From the IMG/VR virus record IMGVR_UViG_648276649_000003: 24,165 nt of DNA. The stretch is one strand, 5' to 3'. Below the pieces are notes generated by a model that was given only the letters and a program-made list of their open reading frames with translations, was not told where the DNA came from and made no database searches. Both the position numbers and the translations under genes were made by a program. Positions 6,752 through 22,797 of the stretch are shown here, piece by piece. Source of the stretch: a virus. Taxonomy: Duplodnaviria; Heunggongvirae; Uroviricota; Caudoviricetes. Each line of letters begins with the position of its first letter. Within the stretch, counting starts at the first letter, position 1.

Positions 6752-7154
6752 GCCAGTCCGGGTCTGCTGTATCAACTCGCATCAGCAGCACCCGGTATTT
6801 TTTCCATTCGGCTAATGAAACAGTTTCTTCTTCCGTCGCGATCCCCGCATCAACGGCGTCCTGCCGCCATTCTATTTCAGAGTCAGCTGAAGCACGCAGT
6901 CGCGATTTTTCGGCTTCTGCCAACGCAATAATTTCCTCTTCAGTTGGTTCGGGAATATCTATCCATTCAGGTAAACCATCAGAATTAGGAGCGCGTAATT
7001 TTCCGTTAGGTGTTTCTCCGGCAAACTCAACGAATACGGAATAGTCTACTTCAACGGCATCGTCAGGCCAGCTACCTGCATTTTCATAAATACTTTTTAG
7101 CTCATCAGCGTAGAACGCATTTTCTTTTGCAGAATAAAACATATTAATCACCAT
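6723..7154 (-). CDS. Tail-fibre assembly protein (Tfa), expressed orientation
   Basis: Immediately downstream of, and overlapping, the tail-fibre gene on the - strand; acidic Tfa-like sequence. Confidence 0.75.
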
Positions 7155-10383: not shown

Positions 10384-11462
10384 CAGAACGGGTCCTCCTG
10401 TACTCTGGCTTTTTTCTTTTTCCGCGCGCCGGGGTCTTCAGGTTCAGGCAGATAAGCATCAGGCGGGCCGACACGGATTTCCGTCAGGGTACCGTTCTGG
10501 TCCTGAGTAAACGTGACTTCCGAAACAAGCAGTTCGGTATTGTCAAAACCACAGACCGGATCAAAGACAATCACCCGCTGGTTGGGTTGCCACAGCGTAC
10601 CGTTACCCTGTCGCCAGCCCTGCACCACATAGGTGGTTTCATCCGTCCGCGCCGCCCGTTGCCGGGCTTCAAAGTCAGCACGCGCAATACAGCCTGCCCC
10701 CGTAGCCTGCCCTGTCTGCCTGATATACATCGGACGGTAACGGGCAATAAATGCGTCCTCTGTGCGGGCCCGCAGCGCGGTGGTGGTGGCCTCACCGAAA
10801 TCATCGTCGTTTCCGGCACGCTGCCCCGCCACCTGGTAAACAGAAAACCGCTCCCGGATACTCTTCTCCGTATCGCAGGAAAGGATGTTTTCCCCAAGTA
10901 CCAGCGCGGTATGTGCCCGCGTTGAGCCAATACCGCCAATCACCAGCCTGCCGTGCGGATCGTCGTAAGCCAGTGCCTGCTGCTGACCGAGTATTTTGTT
11001 GATTACCTCAATCACCGTTTCACCGTGATCAGGCTGGACATCAGGAATAACACCCGACGGCGCACCGCTGTTCACCACCTCAATGCCGAAAGGCGCAGCA
11101 AGCGCCTGCGCAATCTGTACCAGCGATCGTCCGTTAAACTGTGTCGGTTCGGCTGCACAGTCAATCAGGTCAGCGGTCAGACTGCGTCCGGCAATACCGG
11201 TGCTGACCGAACGGGCATCGTAACGAACGGGAGTCGCCTCCACCCAGCCGGTGATCACCAGCTCATCACCAATCAGCACTTCCACTTTTGAACCGTTTTT
11301 AATGCGCGGCTGAAGCGTGGTGATACCCTCATCTCCCGGCCACTGGCGGGTGATCTCCACACTGAAATCCCGCGCCAGCCGTTCAATACCGGCACCGATG
11401 CGCACCGAAGTCCAGCCATTCCACTCCCGGCCATTTACCCGTAGCGTGACGTTATCGTTCAT
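10383..11462 (-). CDS. Baseplate hub / tail protein (Mu gp44, P2 gpD-like)
   Basis: 359 aa at the expected position upstream of gp45; translationally coupled. Confidence 0.55.
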   Translation of the reverse strand: MNDNVTLRVNGREWNGWTSVRIGAGIERLARDFSVEITRQWPGDEGITTLQPRIKNGSKVEVLIGDELVITGWVEATPVRYDARSVSTGIAGRSLTADLIDCAAEPTQFNGRSLVQIAQALAAPFGIEVVNSGAPSGVIPDVQPDHGETVIEVINKILGQQQALAYDDPHGRLVIGGIGSTRAHTALVLGENILSCDTEKSIRERFSVYQVAGQRAGNDDDFGEATTTALRARTEDAFIARYRPMYIRQTGQATGAGCIARADFEARQRAARTDETTYVVQGWRQGNGTLWQPNQRVIVFDPVCGFDNTELLVSEVTFTQDQNGTLTEIRVGPPDAYLPEPEDPGARKKKKARVQEDPF

Positions 11463-12395: not shown

Positions 12396-12557
12396 CGGTG
12401 TTCACCTTTTTATTCACGCGCCGGATATCACCCGCTGCTTCACGGCGCAGCCAGTAGTTGTTCTCATCAACATTTCGCCCTTCGGCGGGCAAAAGGTCGC
12501 CGCGGGCAGGGTCAGGCACTGACCGCCCTTTAACAGGTTTCACAAACATGATGATCC

Positions 12558-12978
12558 TCAGGAAGGAAGGGGTATTTCGGTGTGATGTTCGATATCGCCG
12601 TCAGGCCCGTTACCGGGATCGAGATAATCAACATCAATCGCCAGCGTTCGCAGTTCATCCAGACTGTTCAGGTCATCCTGCTGGCGGGTATCGTCTTCGG
12701 TCAGCTCGCTGATGACCGAAAAATCGAACTGATAAATCAGCTCATGACGATTCAGATCCAGCAGCGTGCCGCCGTCATAGGTAATCGGGTTACCGCACGC
12801 TTCCGGGTGCCGACGTTGGTTTCGGCAGACGACGTAACTGCTCAACTATTGCTGCGCACGCCGCGCTCTGGAATTTTCGCCCCGCCTCGCTTATCAGGCT
12901 CTTACCAGCAAACGCTCCTTTGTTGGGGTGTCGCCAGTACGTGTTCACGCTGGGCGGAAAAGGCAGGATCAGCTTCAT
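12558..12978 (-). pseudogene. rusA-like Holliday-junction resolvase remnant (frameshifted or truncated)
   Basis: 62-aa ORF starts MKLILPFPPSVNTYWRH (RusA N-terminal signature) then ends prematurely; the downstream sequence continues in another frame (12558-12845). Confidence 0.45.
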
Positions 12979-13301
12979 ACTTTCAGGTCCCTCTCATGTA
13001 ACCAGTGGGTTGCACGCAGCCTTGCGTTTTCCTCACCGGCAAGCAGTGCGCGGATAATCCCGACCGCCTCGCTGTCGTCGTCCTTCACCGCGGTATGAAG
13101 CGTTATCCCCCGGGCCATGCCACGCTTTATCGTGATGACGCCTTTTTTCTCCAGTGCGCGAAGATGCTCCACCGCTGCATTCACCGAACGGTATCCCAGC
13201 ATGGTTGCCACCTCCTGATTGGTTGGCGGGAAGCCACGTTCTTTCTGATAAGAAATCAGCATATCCAGCACCTGCTGCTGGCATTGAGTTAACGTCGTCA
13301 T
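12975..13301 (-). CDS. LexA N-terminal DNA-binding-domain-like protein lacking the S24 peptidase domain
   Basis: 108 aa; LTQCQQQVLDML...GFPPTNQEVATMLGYRSVNAAVEHLRALEKKGVITIKRGMARGI aligns with the LexA winged-helix pattern (LT.RQQ.V...G.PPT..E.A..LG.RS.NAA.EHL.AL..KGVI.I..G..RGI); no Ala-Gly cleavage site or Ser/Lys peptidase domain follows. Confidence 0.6.
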   Translation of the reverse strand: MTTLTQCQQQVLDMLISYQKERGFPPTNQEVATMLGYRSVNAAVEHLRALEKKGVITIKRGMARGITLHTAVKDDDSEAVGIIRALLAGEENARLRATHWLHERDLKV

Positions 13302-13951
13302 GCCGCCATCTCCCTGACCAGTTTTTCCGCCTGCTGGCGAACCTGCGCCAGAAACGCCTCACCACATGCCTCAAGTTCATCGCGCCCGATGTAGCTGATT
13401 GCCGGTCCCTTCCATGTCTTGTCAAAAACAGCAATAGCACCAGCGAAAAAAGCTCCTGTCGGTACCTGCTTCTCGTCTTTCGGGATAAACCAGACAGGCA
13501 GTTCAAAACCAATACGCCCGCGAATAAAAGCAATATGATCTGCATCTTCCGGCCACCACACTTCGCTGGTGGCAGCTTTGATCAGGAAAACATAGCGCCC
13601 GCCCTTATCACGCATGGCACTGGCATGTTTCATGATGTAACGCATGCCGGTGATGTATTGCCCCTCATGCTGACTGGCGCGGCTGTATGGGGGATTACCA
13701 AAGGCAGCACCTTTAAGCTCCGCAAGACGTTCTGACCAGTCATGCGCCAGCGCGTTGTCTTCCGCCGTGTAATACGCGGCACATTTGGCGTTATCACCGT
13801 CAGTGAACAGATCCAGAACAAACGGGCCAAACAGGGTGTTAATTCCCCAGAAAATGTTGTCCGGCGTGCGCCACTGATCGCCCACTTCCTTCAGTTCATG
13901 GGCTGGTTTGTTCCGCAGTTCCACCAGCGTCTGGCAATATTTATTACTCAT
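13298..13951 (-). CDS. Phage-type N6-adenine DNA methyltransferase (Dam-like, orphan)
   Basis: NPPY-type catalytic motif (FGNPPYS). Start placed at the MSNKYCQ methionine (13951), which overlaps the upstream stop by one base (TAATG); an in-frame upstream ATG at 13984 is an alternative. Confidence 0.7.
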   Translation of the reverse strand: MSNKYCQTLVELRNKPAHELKEVGDQWRTPDNIFWGINTLFGPFVLDLFTDGDNAKCAAYYTAEDNALAHDWSERLAELKGAAFGNPPYSRASQHEGQYITGMRYIMKHASAMRDKGGRYVFLIKAATSEVWWPEDADHIAFIRGRIGFELPVWFIPKDEKQVPTGAFFAGAIAVFDKTWKGPAISYIGRDELEACGEAFLAQVRQQAEKLVREMAA

Positions 13952-14445
13952 TAAGCCCCCACGTAATTCCCTGACAGATACCACTCTTCACCCGATGCAG
14001 CGCGCTTGCTGCTTTTCCGTAAGCACCGCTCACGACGCGCCAGAAAATTGTTTCGTTCTGGCTGGGAGTGGCTTTCACGGAATGCCGCCATCCACACGGT
14101 TGCAGCACGACGGTATAAGCCCCTGGACTCCAGTTCTTCCGCCTGGCGGGTCAGGCACAAAATCACACGGGGATCGTTAGTGCCGACATAGAAATTGCGC
14201 ACAGGTCTGGTTTCACGAACTGGTTGTGGTTCCGGTTCCTGCGCTCTCTCAGTCAGGCGCGGGAAATGTCTGCGTGTATCTCCTTCACAACGGTGAGCCA
14301 CACGCCCACTCTGACGTAACTTGCTTGCTGACTGCAGAACGCGCTGCCGTGAGTAACCGGCAAAAGCATCCGCAATATCTCCGGAAGTACAGCCCGGATG
14401 GGCTTCAATGAATTTCTGAACGTCATTCAAAAGACTCATGCTCAC
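13951..14445 (-). CDS. Putative PerC-family-like regulator with an N-terminal extension
   Basis: C-terminal AEELESRGLYRRAATVWMAAF...RRERCL resembles the PerC/Pch signature as I recall it (AE.LE..GLYRRAA..W...RR..CL); identity is tentative. Confidence 0.45.
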   Translation of the reverse strand: MSMSLLNDVQKFIEAHPGCTSGDIADAFAGYSRQRVLQSASKLRQSGRVAHRCEGDTRRHFPRLTERAQEPEPQPVRETRPVRNFYVGTNDPRVILCLTRQAEELESRGLYRRAATVWMAAFRESHSQPERNNFLARRERCLRKSSKRAASGEEWYLSGNYVGA

Positions 14446-15731: not shown

Positions 15732-16279
15732 GCGTTAGTTTCTCCACAGTCACGACACGCCACGGCGCCCGGAGCTGCACACTCGCGGGCGTCATTACTT
15801 TCTGAAATGCAAAAAATTTTGTAGACCAGTGCTGCATGCTCCTGCAGCTTCGAAATTGAGAGGTACAGCTCGTCGTTAATTGCTGTCTTCTCATGCGGTT
15901 CCACTACACCGTCTTCAATTGCTGAACGAATCTGTTTTGAATAACTGCCGATCTGTTCAATGACCTCCAGCAGGCGTTGGTTGATATCGGCGTTGTCCAC
16001 ATCCTCGACATCAGGAAGAGACACAAAGACGCCATTTGCAGACTGCGCCACAGCGTCAGCAATGAAGTGAGTTCCACCAGCACGTTGCAAAATCATTGCC
16101 CATCCCAGCGGGAAAATCTGATCGCCATCGGCACGAAGGCGGTTAAATAATGCGTTCTCTGTTACATCCAGCCAGTCAGCAGCTTCAGCGTAACCCCCCG
16201 GCAACGCTGCGATAGTTTTTCTGACAGCTTTCACGTACCACTCAGGCTGTTTTTCTACTTTCCAGTGATGCTTACCCAC
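15728..16279 (-). CDS. Hypothetical phage early protein (e14 YmfL-like by size and position)
   Basis: 183 aa, directly downstream of cro in the same operon; overlapping starts and stops. Confidence 0.5.
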
Positions 16280-16532
16280 GGTTCACCTCCTGTTCCTGTG
16301 GTTTAAACCCATTCTGGTTTTGGCTAGATTGAAAACGTGCCGGATAAAGAATCTGCATTTCGCTGACTTCACCCTTAAAAAAATTGGCTAAACGTTCTGC
16401 AAGCTCGATAGATGGAATCTGCTCCAGCCTCTCAATACGACTCAACGTCGCTGGATTGACTTGAACACCCGCAGCAACATGCTGCAAAGTGAAACCATGC
16501 GCCTTACGCACATTTCGTAATGGTGATTGCAT
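16272..16532 (-). CDS. Cro-like HTH (XRE-family) regulator
   Basis: 86 aa with HTH (GFTLQHVAAGVQVNPATLSRIE); divergent from cI; GGAGG Shine-Dalgarno 5 nt upstream of the ATG. Confidence 0.7.
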   Translation of the reverse strand: MQSPLRNVRKAHGFTLQHVAAGVQVNPATLSRIERLEQIPSIELAERLANFFKGEVSEMQILYPARFQSSQNQNGFKPQEQEVNRG

Positions 16533-16629
16533 ATAACCTCCAAATATTGCGCGTTATGCATGTTATTTCACGCAATTATTTTGCGCAAGTTGATTTGCTT
16601 ATCACGCAATAAAGAAATGTAATAAACGC
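16533..16629. promoter_or_regulatory. cro-cI divergent promoter/operator region with repeated TTGC...GCAA-type sites
   Basis: 97-bp intergenic region containing ATTGCGCG (16546-16553), TCACGCAA (16568-16575), palindromic TTGCGCAA (16581-16588) and a 15-bp site TTGCTTATCACGCAA (16595-16609). Confidence 0.6.
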
Positions 16630-17322
16630 ATGAACATAGGAAACCGAGTCAGACAACTTCGCCAAGCGAAGAACATGAAAATCGCCGATCTCGCTGAAGC
16701 AATAGGAGTAGATGCGGCGAACATCTCGCGCTTAGAAACGGGTAAGCAAAAACAATTTACCGAACAAACACTGAGTAATATTGCCAAGAGCTTAGGTGTT
16801 GATATTGCTGATCTCTTTACCTCTGCCCACAAAAGTAATACTGTATATAAAAACAGTAATAATGAGGATGTTGCGCAGGTGAAGGATGTGTTCCGTATTG
16901 AAATGCTGGATATCAGTGCCAGTGCGGGAAATGGCCTTATCCAGGGCGGTGATGTCATTGATGTGATTCATGCCATCGAATACAGAACTGATAATGCTGT
17001 ATCAATGTTCGGCGGACGACCAGCCAATCACATCAAAGTTATCAACGTTCGTGGGGACAGTATGTGTCCAACCATTGAGCCAGGAGATCTCATCTTCGTT
17101 GATGTCAGCATCAATCAGTTTGATGGTGATGGTATATATGTCTTTGGTTTTGATGACAAAATATACGTTAAAAGACTTCAAATGATTCCTGACAAACTGC
17201 TGGTGATTTCTGATAACCAGATTTACCGTGAATGGGGAATTACTAGCGAAAACGAACACCGATTCATGGTCTTTGGAAAGGTCTTAATCAGTCAGTCGCA
17301 AACCCTTAAGAGACATAATTAA
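16630..17322 (+). CDS. CI-like prophage repressor (HTH_XRE plus S24 LexA-like peptidase domain)
   Basis: 230 aa; N-terminal HTH (MKIADLAEAIGVDAANISRLETGKQ); C-terminal S24 signature (GDSMCPTIEPGDLIFVD ... YVKRL). Confidence 0.85.
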   Translation: MNIGNRVRQLRQAKNMKIADLAEAIGVDAANISRLETGKQKQFTEQTLSNIAKSLGVDIADLFTSAHKSNTVYKNSNNEDVAQVKDVFRIEMLDISASAGNGLIQGGDVIDVIHAIEYRTDNAVSMFGGRPANHIKVINVRGDSMCPTIEPGDLIFVDVSINQFDGDGIYVFGFDDKIYVKRLQMIPDKLLVISDNQIYREWGITSENEHRFMVFGKVLISQSQTLKRHN

Positions 17323-17340
17323 CCTCAATATCCCATCCAT

Positions 17341-17363
17341 CGGCCACCGAAAGGTGGCTTTTT
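17341..17363 (+). terminator. Rho-independent terminator after cI
   Basis: GGCCACC-GAAA-GGTGGC hairpin followed by TTTTT, 20 bp after the cI stop. Confidence 0.7.
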
Positions 17364-17376
17364 AATACCTATAAAT

Positions 17377-17413
17377 TTGCATACCTCGCAAATATTACTT
17401 GCATATCTCGCAA
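17377..17413. promoter_or_regulatory. Two direct 15-bp operator-like sites (TTGCATACCTCGCAA and TTGCATATCTCGCAA), an OL-like position
   Basis: 14 of 15 identical, centre-to-centre spacing 22 bp; same TTGC-N7-GCAA pattern as the site at 16595-16609 on the other side of cI. Confidence 0.55.
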
Positions 17414-17661
17414 TTTAATTTTATCTTTTGTTCCAGACCAACTACCGGATTACAACAAAATCTGGTTGCAACACGGTGCATGTGTCGTAAGCAGTCAGTA
17501 AATGTCAAAAACGAACAGGCAGGACGCCCACGAAGTAGCCGCCTGGGGCATATGAAGTCCAGGATGATTCGTTAGCAACAAAAAAGCGCCCTACAGGACG
17601 CTTAGCTCTTTAACAATCTGGTCCCCATCAACAAGTAACTGATAACTTGAGGAGATGTGAA

Positions 17662-17868
17662 ATGCACAAAACAGAACCCAAAATCGTCGCGCCTGGCTAC
17701 ACAGATGAGGAAATTTATGAGTGGATGACAAAGAAGCTGGCAGCTATAAACCAGCTTCGTGAAGTGCTGTCTTATCGACAGGAAACAATAGACTCTTTAA
17801 AAAAACTGGATCAGGAAATCACGGTTTTATCACAGGATGTTACTTTAGATATTGTGCAGACAAATTAG
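17662..17868 (+). CDS. Hypothetical small acidic protein (68 aa), first gene of the presumed early-left operon
   Basis: ORF track begins at a TTG (17647); the in-frame ATG at 17662 is preceded by GAGGAG; 3' end overlaps the convergent 144-aa gene. Confidence 0.45.
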   Translation: MHKTEPKIVAPGYTDEEIYEWMTKKLAAINQLREVLSYRQETIDSLKKLDQEITVLSQDVTLDIVQTN

Positions 17869-18274
17869 GATCCCATTCATTTTCGTCAAAATCATCAAAG
17901 TGATGAATTTGTGATCTCCAGTCTCGATAATCTAAAAATTTCTGGGCGGTTACGCTTATTTTATCAAGTGTGAGTTCATCCTGAATTGAAAGAAGAAGTT
18001 CATCAAATTTCATCTCATTAATCTGTTTTGGCATCCAGTGATGCTTCATCAGAATAAGGTGAACCAGAGCCTTTTTCCCATTCAACTGATTATAGGGAGT
18101 GCCGAATTTCTTCCGGTGCTCATGTAAGACAAGGTCCAAAAGAGTAAGTAATGTTGCCCTTGATTCAACTTTGCTTATTTCGACTGATGACACTACCCCA
18201 CTGATTTCAATGCCCCGATACTTTCCAACATTTTCACAGTGGGATTTGTACAGCGTATAGATATTACCGGACAT
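17840..18274 (-). CDS. Hypothetical protein (144 aa), AT-rich, antisense to the early-left operon
   Basis: Clean ORF with no large competing frame; unusual composition and orientation suggest acquired cargo; no recognisable motif. Confidence 0.5.
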   Translation of the reverse strand: MSGNIYTLYKSHCENVGKYRGIEISGVVSSVEISKVESRATLLTLLDLVLHEHRKKFGTPYNQLNGKKALVHLILMKHHWMPKQINEMKFDELLLSIQDELTLDKISVTAQKFLDYRDWRSQIHHFDDFDENEWDPNLSAQYLK

Positions 18275-18289
18275 TTCTTTTCCTTTTGC

Positions 18290-18720
18290 GTTGTTGGGGA
18301 TAACCAGATTAACCGAATCCTTGTTGTTGGGGAATAACTAGGTCCACCTCGCCTGATGTGGCTAAAAGCAGGCACATAACAGCTAAGTATTTTCAACCAG
18401 AGAGAATCCTTAGCGTTGTGGTGAATGCGGCTCAGCGCACGCGGGTTAAGGTTGAGGCTGACAGTCGACCTTCTGTGGATACCCACCCGCCTGGTGTGCA
18501 ACCTTCGCCAGGCACCGGGAGGCACCCGGCACCACAACTTTATGCTGTGTGTAGTCTTGGCGGTACCAGCTTGTACCCTTGCTTCCGGCTGGTACCGTCC
18601 TTTTTACAAAACAGAGAAGAGCATCACCGGACGACGGGCTCATAACCCAATCCATCCGGGCGGCAGTCACCGCAGGTGTTCTTCTCTGTTTTGTGGAGAA
18701 ACTAACCGACCTTGCAGGGT
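18290..18720. other. GC-rich structured non-coding island (candidate regulatory RNA or leader)
   Basis: About 430 bp with only short mutually overlapping ORFs; many perfect hairpins, including a 10-bp stem and a 13-14-bp long-range stem; direct repeat GTTGTTGGGGA(A)TAA at 18283-18296 and 18314-18328. Confidence 0.4.
18561..18605 (+). terminator. Intrinsic-terminator-like hairpin (CGGTACCAGC / GCTGGTACCG, 17-nt loop) followed by TTTTT
   Basis: Perfect 10-bp stem at 18561-18570 and 18588-18597, then T5 at 18601-18605, on the strand of the early-left genes. Confidence 0.55.
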
Positions 18721-18742
18721 CGATATGATGAGGAGCAGCAAA

Positions 18743-19105
18743 ATGGCTAGCGAACGCAGTACTGATGTGCAGGCATTTATCGGGGAGCTGGACGGCGGCG
18801 TATTTGAAACCAAAATCGGCGCAGTTCTCAGTGAAGTCGCTTCCGGTGTGATGAACACGAAAACCAAAGGTAAGGTCTCGCTCAACCTGGAAATCGAACC
18901 GTTTGATGAGAACCGAGTGAAAATCAAACACAAACTCTCATATGTTCGCCCGACTAACCGCGGGAAAATTTCCGAAGAAGACACCACCGAAACGCCGATG
19001 TATGTCAATCGCGGTGGTCGCCTGACTATTCTGCAGGAAGACCAGGGACAGTTACTGACTCTTGCCGGTGAACCTGACGGAAAACTCCGCGCAGCAGGTC
19101 GTTAA
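18743..19105 (+). CDS. Hypothetical phage protein (CPS-53 YfdP-like by size and position)
   Basis: ATG at 18743 preceded by GAGGAG; 120 aa; the ORF-track start at 18425 is a 5' extension into the structured region and is rejected. Confidence 0.55.
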   Translation: MASERSTDVQAFIGELDGGVFETKIGAVLSEVASGVMNTKTKGKVSLNLEIEPFDENRVKIKHKLSYVRPTNRGKISEEDTTETPMYVNRGGRLTILQEDQGQLLTLAGEPDGKLRAAGR

Positions 19106-22721: not shown

Positions 22722-22797
22722 TGGTGCCGATAATAGGAGTCGAACCTACGACCTTCGCATTACGAATGCGCTGCTCTACCAACTGAGCTATATCGGC
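22722..22797 (-). tRNA. thrW: tRNA-Thr (anticodon CGU)
   Basis: Reverse complement reads GCCGATATAGCTCAGTTGGTAGAGCAGCGCATTCGTAATGCGAAGGTCGTAGGTTCGACTCCTATTATCGGCACCA: cloverleaf with anticodon loop TTCGTAA and encoded CCA. Confidence 0.9.

Follow-up and report, generated by a model that had tools for sequence, protein, structure and literature searches.

The DNA considered here, a stretch of 24,165 nucleotides (nt) from the IMG/VR virus record IMGVR_UViG_648276649_000003 that we call the window, is an SfV/SfIV/ST64B-like lambdoid prophage. It carries cro on the minus strand (16272-16532), a cI-like repressor gene on the plus strand (16630-17322) followed by a small open reading frame (ORF), a minus-strand moron gene of the ECs1072 family (17840-18274), an island of 468 nt at 18275-18742, and then, on the plus strand, yfdP (ATG at 18743), yfdQ and yfdR, with excisionase and integrase genes downstream of yfdR by homology with related records. 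Because of this gene order, the plus direction is that of the "leftward" early operon. The island is a structured non-coding RNA of the plus strand and forms the distal half of the leader of the early-left operon, which starts at the promoter PL. A sequence-only reading of the window had foreseen a structured plus-strand RNA in the early-left operon upstream of xis and int, and this proved correct. It had also treated the island as a single element, which does not hold: the island consists of at least three modules that recombine separately, and its first ~105 nt belong to the moron gene.

The island is GC-rich, as had been noticed (0.51–0.60 over 18300-18800 vs 0.35–0.42 in the flanks), and contains no credible ORF. 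Among 36 distinct close variants, the variable sites upstream of yfdP are spread over the three codon positions as 10/14/18, compared with 1/0/18 inside yfdP. The four overlapping ORFs of the island match no Pfam family, and no frame is open throughout across 25 genera; the upstream extension of the yfdP frame is closed within 6–42 nt of the ATG in 15 of them. Folding of 18340-18745 gave -172.9 kcal/mol for the plus strand, against -134.4 ± 5.5 for shuffled sequences (z = -7.0, reached by 0 of 100 shuffles), while the minus strand arrived at z = -3.55 only. Besides the stems that had been pointed out before, pairing was found for 18382-18394/18402-18414, 18415-18423/18530-18538 and 18438-18446/18485-18493. 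The earlier dismissal of a retron also stands, as no reverse transcriptase gene adjoins the island (the neighbours are the ECs1072-family gene, yfdP, yfdQ and yfdR) and the repeats are explained by RNA structures. From 5' to 3' on the plus strand, the following features can be distinguished.

18275-18381, minus strand: upstream region of the moron gene (5' untranslated region, UTR, and a probable promoter)
18382-18414, plus strand: hairpin P0 (inverted repeat I2, 13 nt, 85%), present in the minimum free energy (MFE) fold and directly 5' of the five-helix RNA
18415-18538, plus strand: module 1, a five-helix junction (Rfam match, covariation, MFE folds, a tRNA in the same slot elsewhere)
18415-18423/18530-18538, plus strand: P1, the closing helix of module 1 (GUUGUGGUG/CACCACAAC), followed by an AA(U) joint
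18426-18439, plus strand: P2, a short hairpin of module 1
18441-18446/18485-18490, plus strand: P3 of module 1, enclosing variable sequence
18491-18511, plus strand: P4, a hairpin of module 1
18515-18529, plus strand: P5, the hairpin CCGGG-AGGCA-CCCGG with the loop AGGCA, abutting the 3' strand of P1
18539-18558, plus strand: single-stranded G/U-rich linker UUUAUGCUGUGUGUAGUCUU, unpaired in the MFE fold
18559-18605, plus strand: Rho-independent terminator with 13 pairs (18559-18571/18587-18599), then C and U5 (18601-18605)
18601-18699, plus strand: module 2, a three-way junction (RNAalifold on 25 genera)
18601-18625/18673-18699, plus strand: main helix of module 2 with 23 pairs, starting in the U-tract of the terminator
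18627-18659, plus strand: branch Pa of module 2, CCGGG-CGAC-GGG-CUCAUAA-CCC-AAUCCA-CCCGG, containing GGGCUCAUAACCC at 18636-18648
18660-18673, plus strand: branch Pb of module 2, a variable hairpin
18695-18702, plus strand: invariant GGAGAAAC (alignment A2)
18707-18722, plus strand: small hairpin with the loop UUGCAG (UGGCAG elsewhere), helix 4, 97% paired
18730-18735, plus strand: Shine-Dalgarno sequence GAGGAG, just before the yfdP ATG

Each module is an independent unit, because phages mEp460 and Stx2c carry module 2 joined to a different module 1, because module 1 is wholly missing from some loci, and because it occurs in Buttiauxella and Kluyvera without the terminator and without module 2.

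The long-range stem of 13–14 base pairs (bp) reported earlier is real and is longer than was thought, with arms of 25 nt (18606-18630/18670-18694) that are 84% complementary. It overlaps the main helix of module 2. In the comparison across genera, 96.5% of the cells of the module 2 helices are paired, and 14 pairs are changed on both sides, compared with 5.0 ± 1.2 after shuffling (0 of 500 shuffles reached this count); slid controls were paired in 44–54%. Since some U-G pairs are invariant, the structure fits an RNA of the plus strand only. The small hairpin covaries as well (CGACC/GGUCG in the window, GGCGG/CCGCC elsewhere). Using the motif ACGGGCTCATWMCCCAATCC, we retrieved 120 IMG/VR loci carrying module 2. 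The next gene is yfdP in 85 of these; among the other 35 loci, 29 had enough downstream sequence, and the first gene there is unrelated in 28 (yfdR-like, RdgC-like or excisionase-like, for example), with no clear first gene in the remaining one. Since the first gene varies, module 2 belongs to the operon leader and not to yfdP. Two further ideas about this region were dropped. A boxA/nut reading of UGCUCUU in the 3' arm fails on the base-pairing of the motif, which reads UGUUCUU in the window, and a leader peptide after GGAGAAAC would have to be a UUG-initiated ORF of 12 codons that exists in the window only and is not conserved.

The stem of 10 bp followed by T5 that had been called a textbook terminator was found as described (18561-18570/18588-18597, perfectly paired) and extends to 13 pairs. 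A hairpin abutting a run of 4–8 U is kept in 86 of 88 distinct variants, despite differing stem sequences, and by sequence criteria the hairpin with its U5 is a conserved intrinsic terminator. A simple terminator scan missed it only because the loop exceeds the 8-nt limit of the scanner. In the linker that precedes the terminator (also written UGCUGUGUGUAGUCUU), the stretch (A)UUGCUGUGUGUAGUCUU is nearly invariant across genera, and ATTGCTGTGTGTAGTCTT is kept in most rows of alignment A2. No complement of the conserved linker occurs elsewhere in the window, so that there is no cis target; the linker is a candidate for a seed or for an Hfq or RNase site.

At gathering thresholds, Rfam reports only the attachment-site tRNA in the window, a tRNA-Thr near its end (22722-22797), which is also the only tRNA detected there. 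A permissive scan was more informative. It gave a match to STnc100 (RF02076) of 43.4 bits, with an E value of 5e-8 in a scan of 801 nt and of 1.6e-6 over the whole window. The match at 18385-18608 covers model positions 1–206, includes hairpin P0 and has the terminator aligned, and a core of 21 nt, ACCGGGAGGCACCCGGCACCA, is identical to the family consensus. The full-length architecture of the family is present, with the closing helix, internal hairpins, the core and a 3' terminator hairpin with a U-tail. Other sub-threshold matches (DicF with 19 bits, ftsZ-DE, hairpin ribozyme) were judged to be due to chance. At the place of P0, phage ST64B has a hairpin of other sequence, GATAAGAG..CTCTTATC.

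Upstream of identical or related yfdP genes, we found at least four sequence types of module 1, which share P1 and the flanks and differ in their interiors: type A in the window, ST64B and Buttiauxella; type B in mEp460, Citrobacter, Serratia and Kosakonia; type C in Izhakiella and Erwinia; and type D in Kluyvera, Klebsiella, Enterobacter and Scandinavium. A mini version exists in Kosakonia and Atlantibacter. The STnc100 model scored 35.1 bits on the ST64B homolog and did not match types B and C. Across types A–D and the STnc100 RNAs of phage Fels-1, pairing in the hand-annotated helices P1, P2 and P5 is preserved by compensatory changes. In P5, CCGGG/CCCGG is replaced by GGUGG/CCACC with the loop AGGCA unchanged; another example from module 1 is the series UGCG/CGCA, GCGCA/UGCGC and CCGCG/CGCGG. 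Folded separately, the MFE structures of the window, ST64B and Fels-1 STnc100 show P1, P2, P4 and P5, and those of types B and C show P1 and P2. The helices had to be annotated by hand because the MAFFT alignment was structurally inconsistent (types A and D are off by 1–3 columns in P3 and P5), and the support for module 1 is therefore weaker than for module 2.

Three canonical STnc100 copies, scoring 138, 83 and 59 bits, are found in Fels-1 at 12432-14187, all on the sense strand of the interval from Q to the holin gene. Those of 138 and 83 bits are full-length and contain their own terminator; the third matches model positions 19–154 only. One of the copies is located just before the first lysis gene, and all of them are in the leader of an antiterminated operon. 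In the literature, the context of STnc100 is the late region, either downstream of stx or in the segment that separates Q from the lysis genes; the window copy sits between cI/PL and yfdP. The copies in strain EDL933 are multicopy and transcribed as discrete RNAs without induction, one of them being verified by Northern blot (PMC5331693). PasD, a structural relative of STnc100, is an abundant Hfq-bound small RNA (sRNA) of unknown function (bioRxiv 10.64898/2026.05.13.724894). Module 1 resembles these RNAs in its closing helix, the AAU joint, P2, the P5 hairpin abutting the 3' strand and the trailing Rho-independent terminator, as well as in being sense-oriented within the leader of an operon whose transcription depends on antitermination. 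It differs from them by lying in the early-left (PL) leader instead of the late (Q/PR') leader, by an unrelated linker between core and terminator, by a promoter that is repressor-controlled where the canonical one is constitutive, and by preceding a second conserved structure that is not seen after the Fels-1 copies. Ahead of module 1 in the window type, the best sigma-70 matches reach 6 of 12 positions and none is strong. Judged from its sequence, module 1 belongs to the STnc100/PasD class as a divergent member in a different place; the class is thereby extended to a second genomic context and gains a plausible, testable origin from tRNA. The suggestion of a stable sRNA in the island has thus gained a relative among known stable prophage sRNAs for part of its length, although a discrete RNA at this locus is itself only inferred.

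Upstream of the island, on the far side of the moron gene, lie the promoter and a further structured element.

17342-17359, plus strand: terminator of cI (terminator scan), just before the PL region
17377-17391 and 17399-17413, plus strand: two operator-like sites, TTGC-N6-YGCAA, overlapping PL
17399-17404 and 17422-17427, plus strand: -35 element TTGCAT and -10 element TATCTT of PL with a spacer of 17, recognized by sequence and outside the island
17511-17572, plus strand: element X of ~62 nt, outside the island; its structure comprises an outer helix, a hairpin GGC-AGGAC-GCC and a second stem that covaries

The operator-like sequence TTGC-N6-YGCAA has only one other occurrence in the window, at 16595 in the gap between cI and cro, and promoters equivalent to PL are found at the same place in ST64B and mEp460. 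In NC-SV-like prophages, a co293-like sRNA, svsR, is placed at the 3' end of cI (PMC12803456), which corresponds to ~17250-17360 (plus strand) in the window. This svsR/C0293-like sRNA was considered as the identity of the island and dropped, as it is a different element at the 3' end of cI.

Element X was found as 88 distinct sequence variants, directly behind the PL promoters of at least five immunity (operator) types in many genera. Its first half is almost invariant; covariation is seen in the outer helix and in stem II, where the variants CCUGG/CCAGG, CCGGU/ACCGG and CCCCA/UGGGG occur. The sequence-only reading had considered nut- or put-like antitermination elements possible within the island. 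None could be shown within 18275-18742, and the best candidate is element X, ~900 nt farther upstream. X may be a put-like antiterminator that lets polymerase pass the terminator at 18559-18605. In ST64B, which has 815 bp without genes between cI and its yfdP homolog and the same order of elements as the window, at least two leader terminators follow X. The comparison by position, size and shape is with putL of HK022, whose RNA acts as an antiterminator (PMC9378689). Like HK022 and HK639, the prophage is lambdoid, lacks an N-like first gene (no N-like gene is present in it) and has intrinsic terminators in the early-left leader; X itself is folded, conserved and located immediately behind PL, with about 60–70 nt and covarying stem-loops as in put (PMC9378689). 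Nothing within 18275-18742 resembles put in size or shape. No second element resembling X or module 1 was found in the right operon, whose genes are tightly packed. A kissing interaction between the loop of X (UAUGA) and the loop of module 2 (UCAUA) was rejected, since no covariation between them was seen across 123 loci.

The leader also invites comparison with other lambdoid leaders. In lambda, the leader of N contains nutL and then an RNase III-sensitive hairpin before the first gene. The window shares with it the arrangement of a putative polymerase-modifying signal first and then a long imperfect hairpin upstream of the ribosome-binding site of the first gene, and differs by the lack of an N gene and of boxA/boxB and by the interposed terminator and sRNA-like module. 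Sy et al. reportedly described StxS in 2020 as a regulatory sRNA that arises from termination in an antiterminated phage leader. With lambda 6S RNA and StxS, the locus would have in common that default termination a few hundred nt into a leader yields a stable terminator-ended RNA, while antiterminated polymerase continues. Those RNAs, however, are lysogen transcripts of the constitutive late promoter PR', whereas the putative RNA of the window lies downstream of the repressed PL and an antisense moron and is much larger and more structured. The concept of a short transcript made by termination in an antiterminated phage leader has been described before (PMC4104026).

From these comparisons, we infer the release of a discrete sRNA by default termination, read-through that depends on X, and a role for the hairpin of module 2 in processing and translation before the first gene; we regard this scheme as evenly poised between right and wrong. 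Transcripts from PL (start ~17434) would make element X first. Polymerase would next pass through the moron, which is oriented the opposite way, and arrive at module 1. By stopping at the terminator, it would release a structured RNA of roughly 190–220 nt, which by analogy with STnc100, PasD, lambda 6S RNA and StxS would be a stable terminator-ended sRNA and is probably trimmed on the 5' side next to P1. Read-through polymerase, most likely made terminator-resistant by X, would go on to transcribe the three-way and small hairpins. Module 2 and the small hairpin would then form the 5' UTR of the first gene, whatever its identity (here yfdP), and would probably serve together as a processing site, the 23-pair helix of module 2 being RNase III-like, and as a platform for translation initiation. 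This points to a protein-independent control of the early-left operon in lambdoid phages without N, with a put-like element followed by leader terminators. It would also define compact, portable RNA parts (terminator, hairpin and ribosome-binding platform) ahead of any first gene.

Several observations weigh against this scheme. The window copy stays below the STnc100 gathering score of 47 bits, which is also why standard annotation misses it. No sequence similarity could be detected between element X and the put RNAs of HK022 or HK639, and a blastn comparison of the leaders of the window, ST64B and two further loci (L093 and L128) with the HK022/HK639 put regions gave chance-level similarity only. 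Because PL is repressed in a lysogen, the RNA may be made only after induction or infection, unlike STnc100 and PasD. The modules are not obligatorily coupled, as the arrangement in Buttiauxella and Kluyvera demonstrates. Finally, four phages (L075, L235, L245 and L274) lack X and have, 12 nt upstream of P1, a near-consensus sigma-70 promoter (10 of 12 positions, TTGACA-18-TACATT) that is equipped with operators of its own, so that read-through in these phages cannot depend on X.

This last arrangement keeps alive the idea that module 1 itself acts in cis as a processive antiterminator, being functionally a larger counterpart of HK022 put; as nascent RNA it would bind polymerase and take it past the adjacent terminator and later ones. 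In the four phages, the early-left transcript begins directly with module 1, just as that of HK022 begins with putL, and module 1 is adjacent to the promoter; in the window it is ~980 nt away from PL. Wherever the terminator is present, module 1 precedes it, and P1, the AAU joint and the P5 loop AGGCA are kept at the sequence level. Against such a role, the interior of module 1 is swapped wholesale among types A–D and shrinks to the mini version in Kosakonia and Atlantibacter, an ordinary tRNA can fill its slot, and in Buttiauxella and Kluyvera no terminator follows it. In Fels-1, the three STnc100 copies are downstream of Q, which already gives antitermination. Module 1 also shows no similarity to put of HK022 or HK639. 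Taken together, we consider this explanation unlikely.

The tRNA in the module 1 slot deserves a closer look. In the early-left leaders of two Phytobacter ursingii prophages, ARAGORN detects a tRNA of 79 nt with an encoded CCA and the unusual anticodon AAU exactly at the place of module 1 (L105 2222-2300 and L113 1186-1264). Its upstream flank is that of module 1, AGTGCTCTTTCC. The tRNA starts with GTTGTGGCG and ends with CGCCGCAAC-CCA, having the same closing-stem sequence as module 1 (GTTGTGGTG...CACCACAAC), and downstream of it come a relative of the conserved linker, the terminator, module 2 and yfdP. In its connectivity, module 1 corresponds to a class II cloverleaf: P1 and P2 are separated by 2–3 nt and P2 and P3 by 1 nt, the extra arm is long, and P5 directly adjoins P1. 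This match depends on manual helix assignment and, for the tRNA in the slot, on one species. P2 contains GCUCAG, which is typical of D arms. It is plausible from these sequence features that module 1 is derived from a tRNA or at least exchangeable with one, which does not make it a tRNA.

A second resemblance concerns module 2. The 13 nt at 18636-18648, GGGCUCAUAACCC, are identical to positions 29–41 of the E. coli initiator tRNA (a sequence verified against all 5426 genomes), comprising three G-C pairs and the anticodon loop, and are displayed within module 2 in the same way, as a stem of 3 bp with a loop of 7 nt. With the flanks, the match extends to 17 of 19 nt. By a rough estimate, ~0.01 matches of 13 nt would be expected by chance between a leader of ~200 nt and any E. 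coli tRNA. Most loci have CUCAUAA as the loop and some have CUCAUUA or CUCAUUC, the GGG of the stem is changed to CGG in a few, and the whole branch is missing in a Serratia locus (L122). We regard this as a striking, unexplained resemblance by sequence and not as a demonstrated mimic.

Two related sequences were seen elsewhere. The motif GGACGGGCTCATAACCCAATCC also occurs at 10448-10467 of an unrelated viral contig (L206), ~250 nt upstream of a tRNA-Gln gene and outside a leader of the yfdP type, where it may be part of a tRNA-Met-like gene. A tRNA-like fragment, GGCAGGTTCAATCCCTGCCACC, with a T-arm-like hairpin, lies between X and module 1 in several genera, including the L093 and L128 leaders (~2010-2050 in L128).

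The modules might accordingly be tRNA-derived RNAs that act by their likeness to tRNA, whether through RNase P-type excision, as punctuation for processing, or as decoys or ligands of VapC-type toxins, methionyl-tRNA synthetase (MetRS) or the P site of the 30S subunit. Precedents would be tRNA genes in lambdoid operon leaders, since a genuine tRNA fills the slot in the Phytobacter prophages with the same upstream flank and closing stem, and the mimicry of anticodon arms by mRNA leaders, for instance in the E. coli thrS operator, given the 13-nt initiator copy ~95 nt before the start codon. The cloverleaf connectivity and the GCUCAG of P2 fit as well. However, module 1 differs from such systems in having a P5 loop of 5 nt without a T-loop motif, no CCA and a P1 of 8–9 bp. 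It is not recognized by ARAGORN or by the Rfam tRNA model (RF00005; 18100-18900, E values up to 10), and ARAGORN called no tRNA in the scanned loci that carry module 1. The initiator-like loop varies in some lineages, besides its absence from the Serratia locus, and the tRNA in the slot comes from a single species. This explanation therefore seems improbable to us, to about the same degree as the preceding one. An equally doubtful, broader version would have the early-left leader as a string of tRNA-derived RNAs: module 1 and the STnc100/PasD RNAs would have a phage tRNA gene as their ancestor and would remain substrates of tRNA-processing enzymes, module 2 would be a replica of the initiator anticodon arm, and both would be decoys or ligands of host factors directed at tRNA. 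These factors may include VapC-type initiator-tRNA nucleases, other anticodon nucleases, MetRS and the 30S P site. If this were true, RNAs appearing first upon induction or infection would serve to protect translation or to tune the initiation of the first early gene, and RNA decoys would join the anti-defence repertoire of temperate phages.

The remaining explanations are far less probable than these two. A riboswitch-like attenuator, in which module 1 senses a ligand or factor and chooses between the terminator and an antiterminator pairing, would be in keeping with the P1-closed multi-helix domain that precedes the intrinsic terminator by 20 nt, the usual layout of transcriptional riboswitches. 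The interior of module 1, however, is not conserved among types A–D and thus unfit for a ligand pocket, and no riboswitch family was matched by Rfam at E values up to 10. The linker is constant but the terminator stems vary widely in sequence; no conserved antiterminator pairing therefore exists, and an alternative pairing of the riboswitch type was dropped. We consider such a switch very improbable.

The same low probability applies to an element acting at the DNA level (a cruciform, a protein-binding inverted repeat, or a recombination or replication site) or to an RNA of the minus strand. The long inverted repeats and the fact that the minus strand also folds better than its shuffles would be compatible with it. 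Yet the invariant U-G pairs and the G-U intermediates would become C-A mismatches on the other strand or in DNA, U-tracts follow the hairpins on the plus strand only, where the z-score is twice as large, and the arms are at least 39 nt apart, with an interior that is itself structured and conserved.

Least probable of all is a decayed protein-coding gene: RefSeq/PGAP labels the equivalent of 18418-18728 a frameshifted hypothetical protein (pseudogene), overlapping ORFs are called there in SfIV and other phage records, some of them extending yfdP upstream, and an ORF of 226 amino acids in the yfdP frame is open from 18425, but the coding tests described above show no third-position excess, no Pfam family and no frame open across the 25 genera, the substitutions are compensatory in RNA helices, and the indels are not multiples of three. 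The annotation of the island, which databases label "hypothetical protein" or "frameshifted pseudogene" or leave blank, should be corrected accordingly.

The correction concerns many genomes. The island is found with 100% identity in many E. coli chromosomes and has a match in 2782 of 5426 complete E. coli genomes. Phages Kati, SfIV, SfV and SfII show 96–99.8% identity, and Salmonella phage ST64B shows 78%. The island sequence is present in about half of the complete E. coli genomes, and in prophages of many other Enterobacterales.

The first part of the island has a different history. Homology to SfV and SfII begins at 18344 and homology to ST64B at ~18399, so that the first ~105 nt are not shared with SfV or ST64B, and the segment 18340-18384 recurs beside minus-strand genes in three other loci (L103, L110 and L059). 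By these sequence comparisons, 18275-18381 belongs to, or travels with, the minus-strand moron gene. The moron cassette as a whole (17584-18381) sits within the leader between element X and module 1, and PL transcripts must traverse it in antisense direction. It also contains the following features.

17603-17584 and 17758-17733, minus strand: terminator-like hairpins
17647-17868, plus strand: overlapping ORF of 68/73 amino acids

A direct repeat had been described just upstream of the minus-strand gene. Both copies exist within 18275-18381, at positions 7–9 nt away from those first given: GTTGTTGGGGATAA at 18290-18303 and GTTGTTGGGGAATAA at 18323-18337. Repeat families D1 and D2 tie 18285-18332 to 18404-18426 at 76–78%, and the copies resemble GAATCCTTAGCGTTGTGGTGAAT, the 5' edge of module 1, to this extent. 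The repeat looks like decayed copies of that edge, probably left as recombination scars, and not like a regulatory repeat.

Two minor observations concern other parts of the prophages. Rfam gave a weak match to IS009 at 6763-6969 on the minus strand of the window (37.6 bits against a gathering score of 117, E value 1.4e-5). C4 antisense RNA and isrK have no match in the window; above-threshold matches to both are located in the antirepressor region of mEp460 (L003 824-1012) and ST64B (L004 909-1097).

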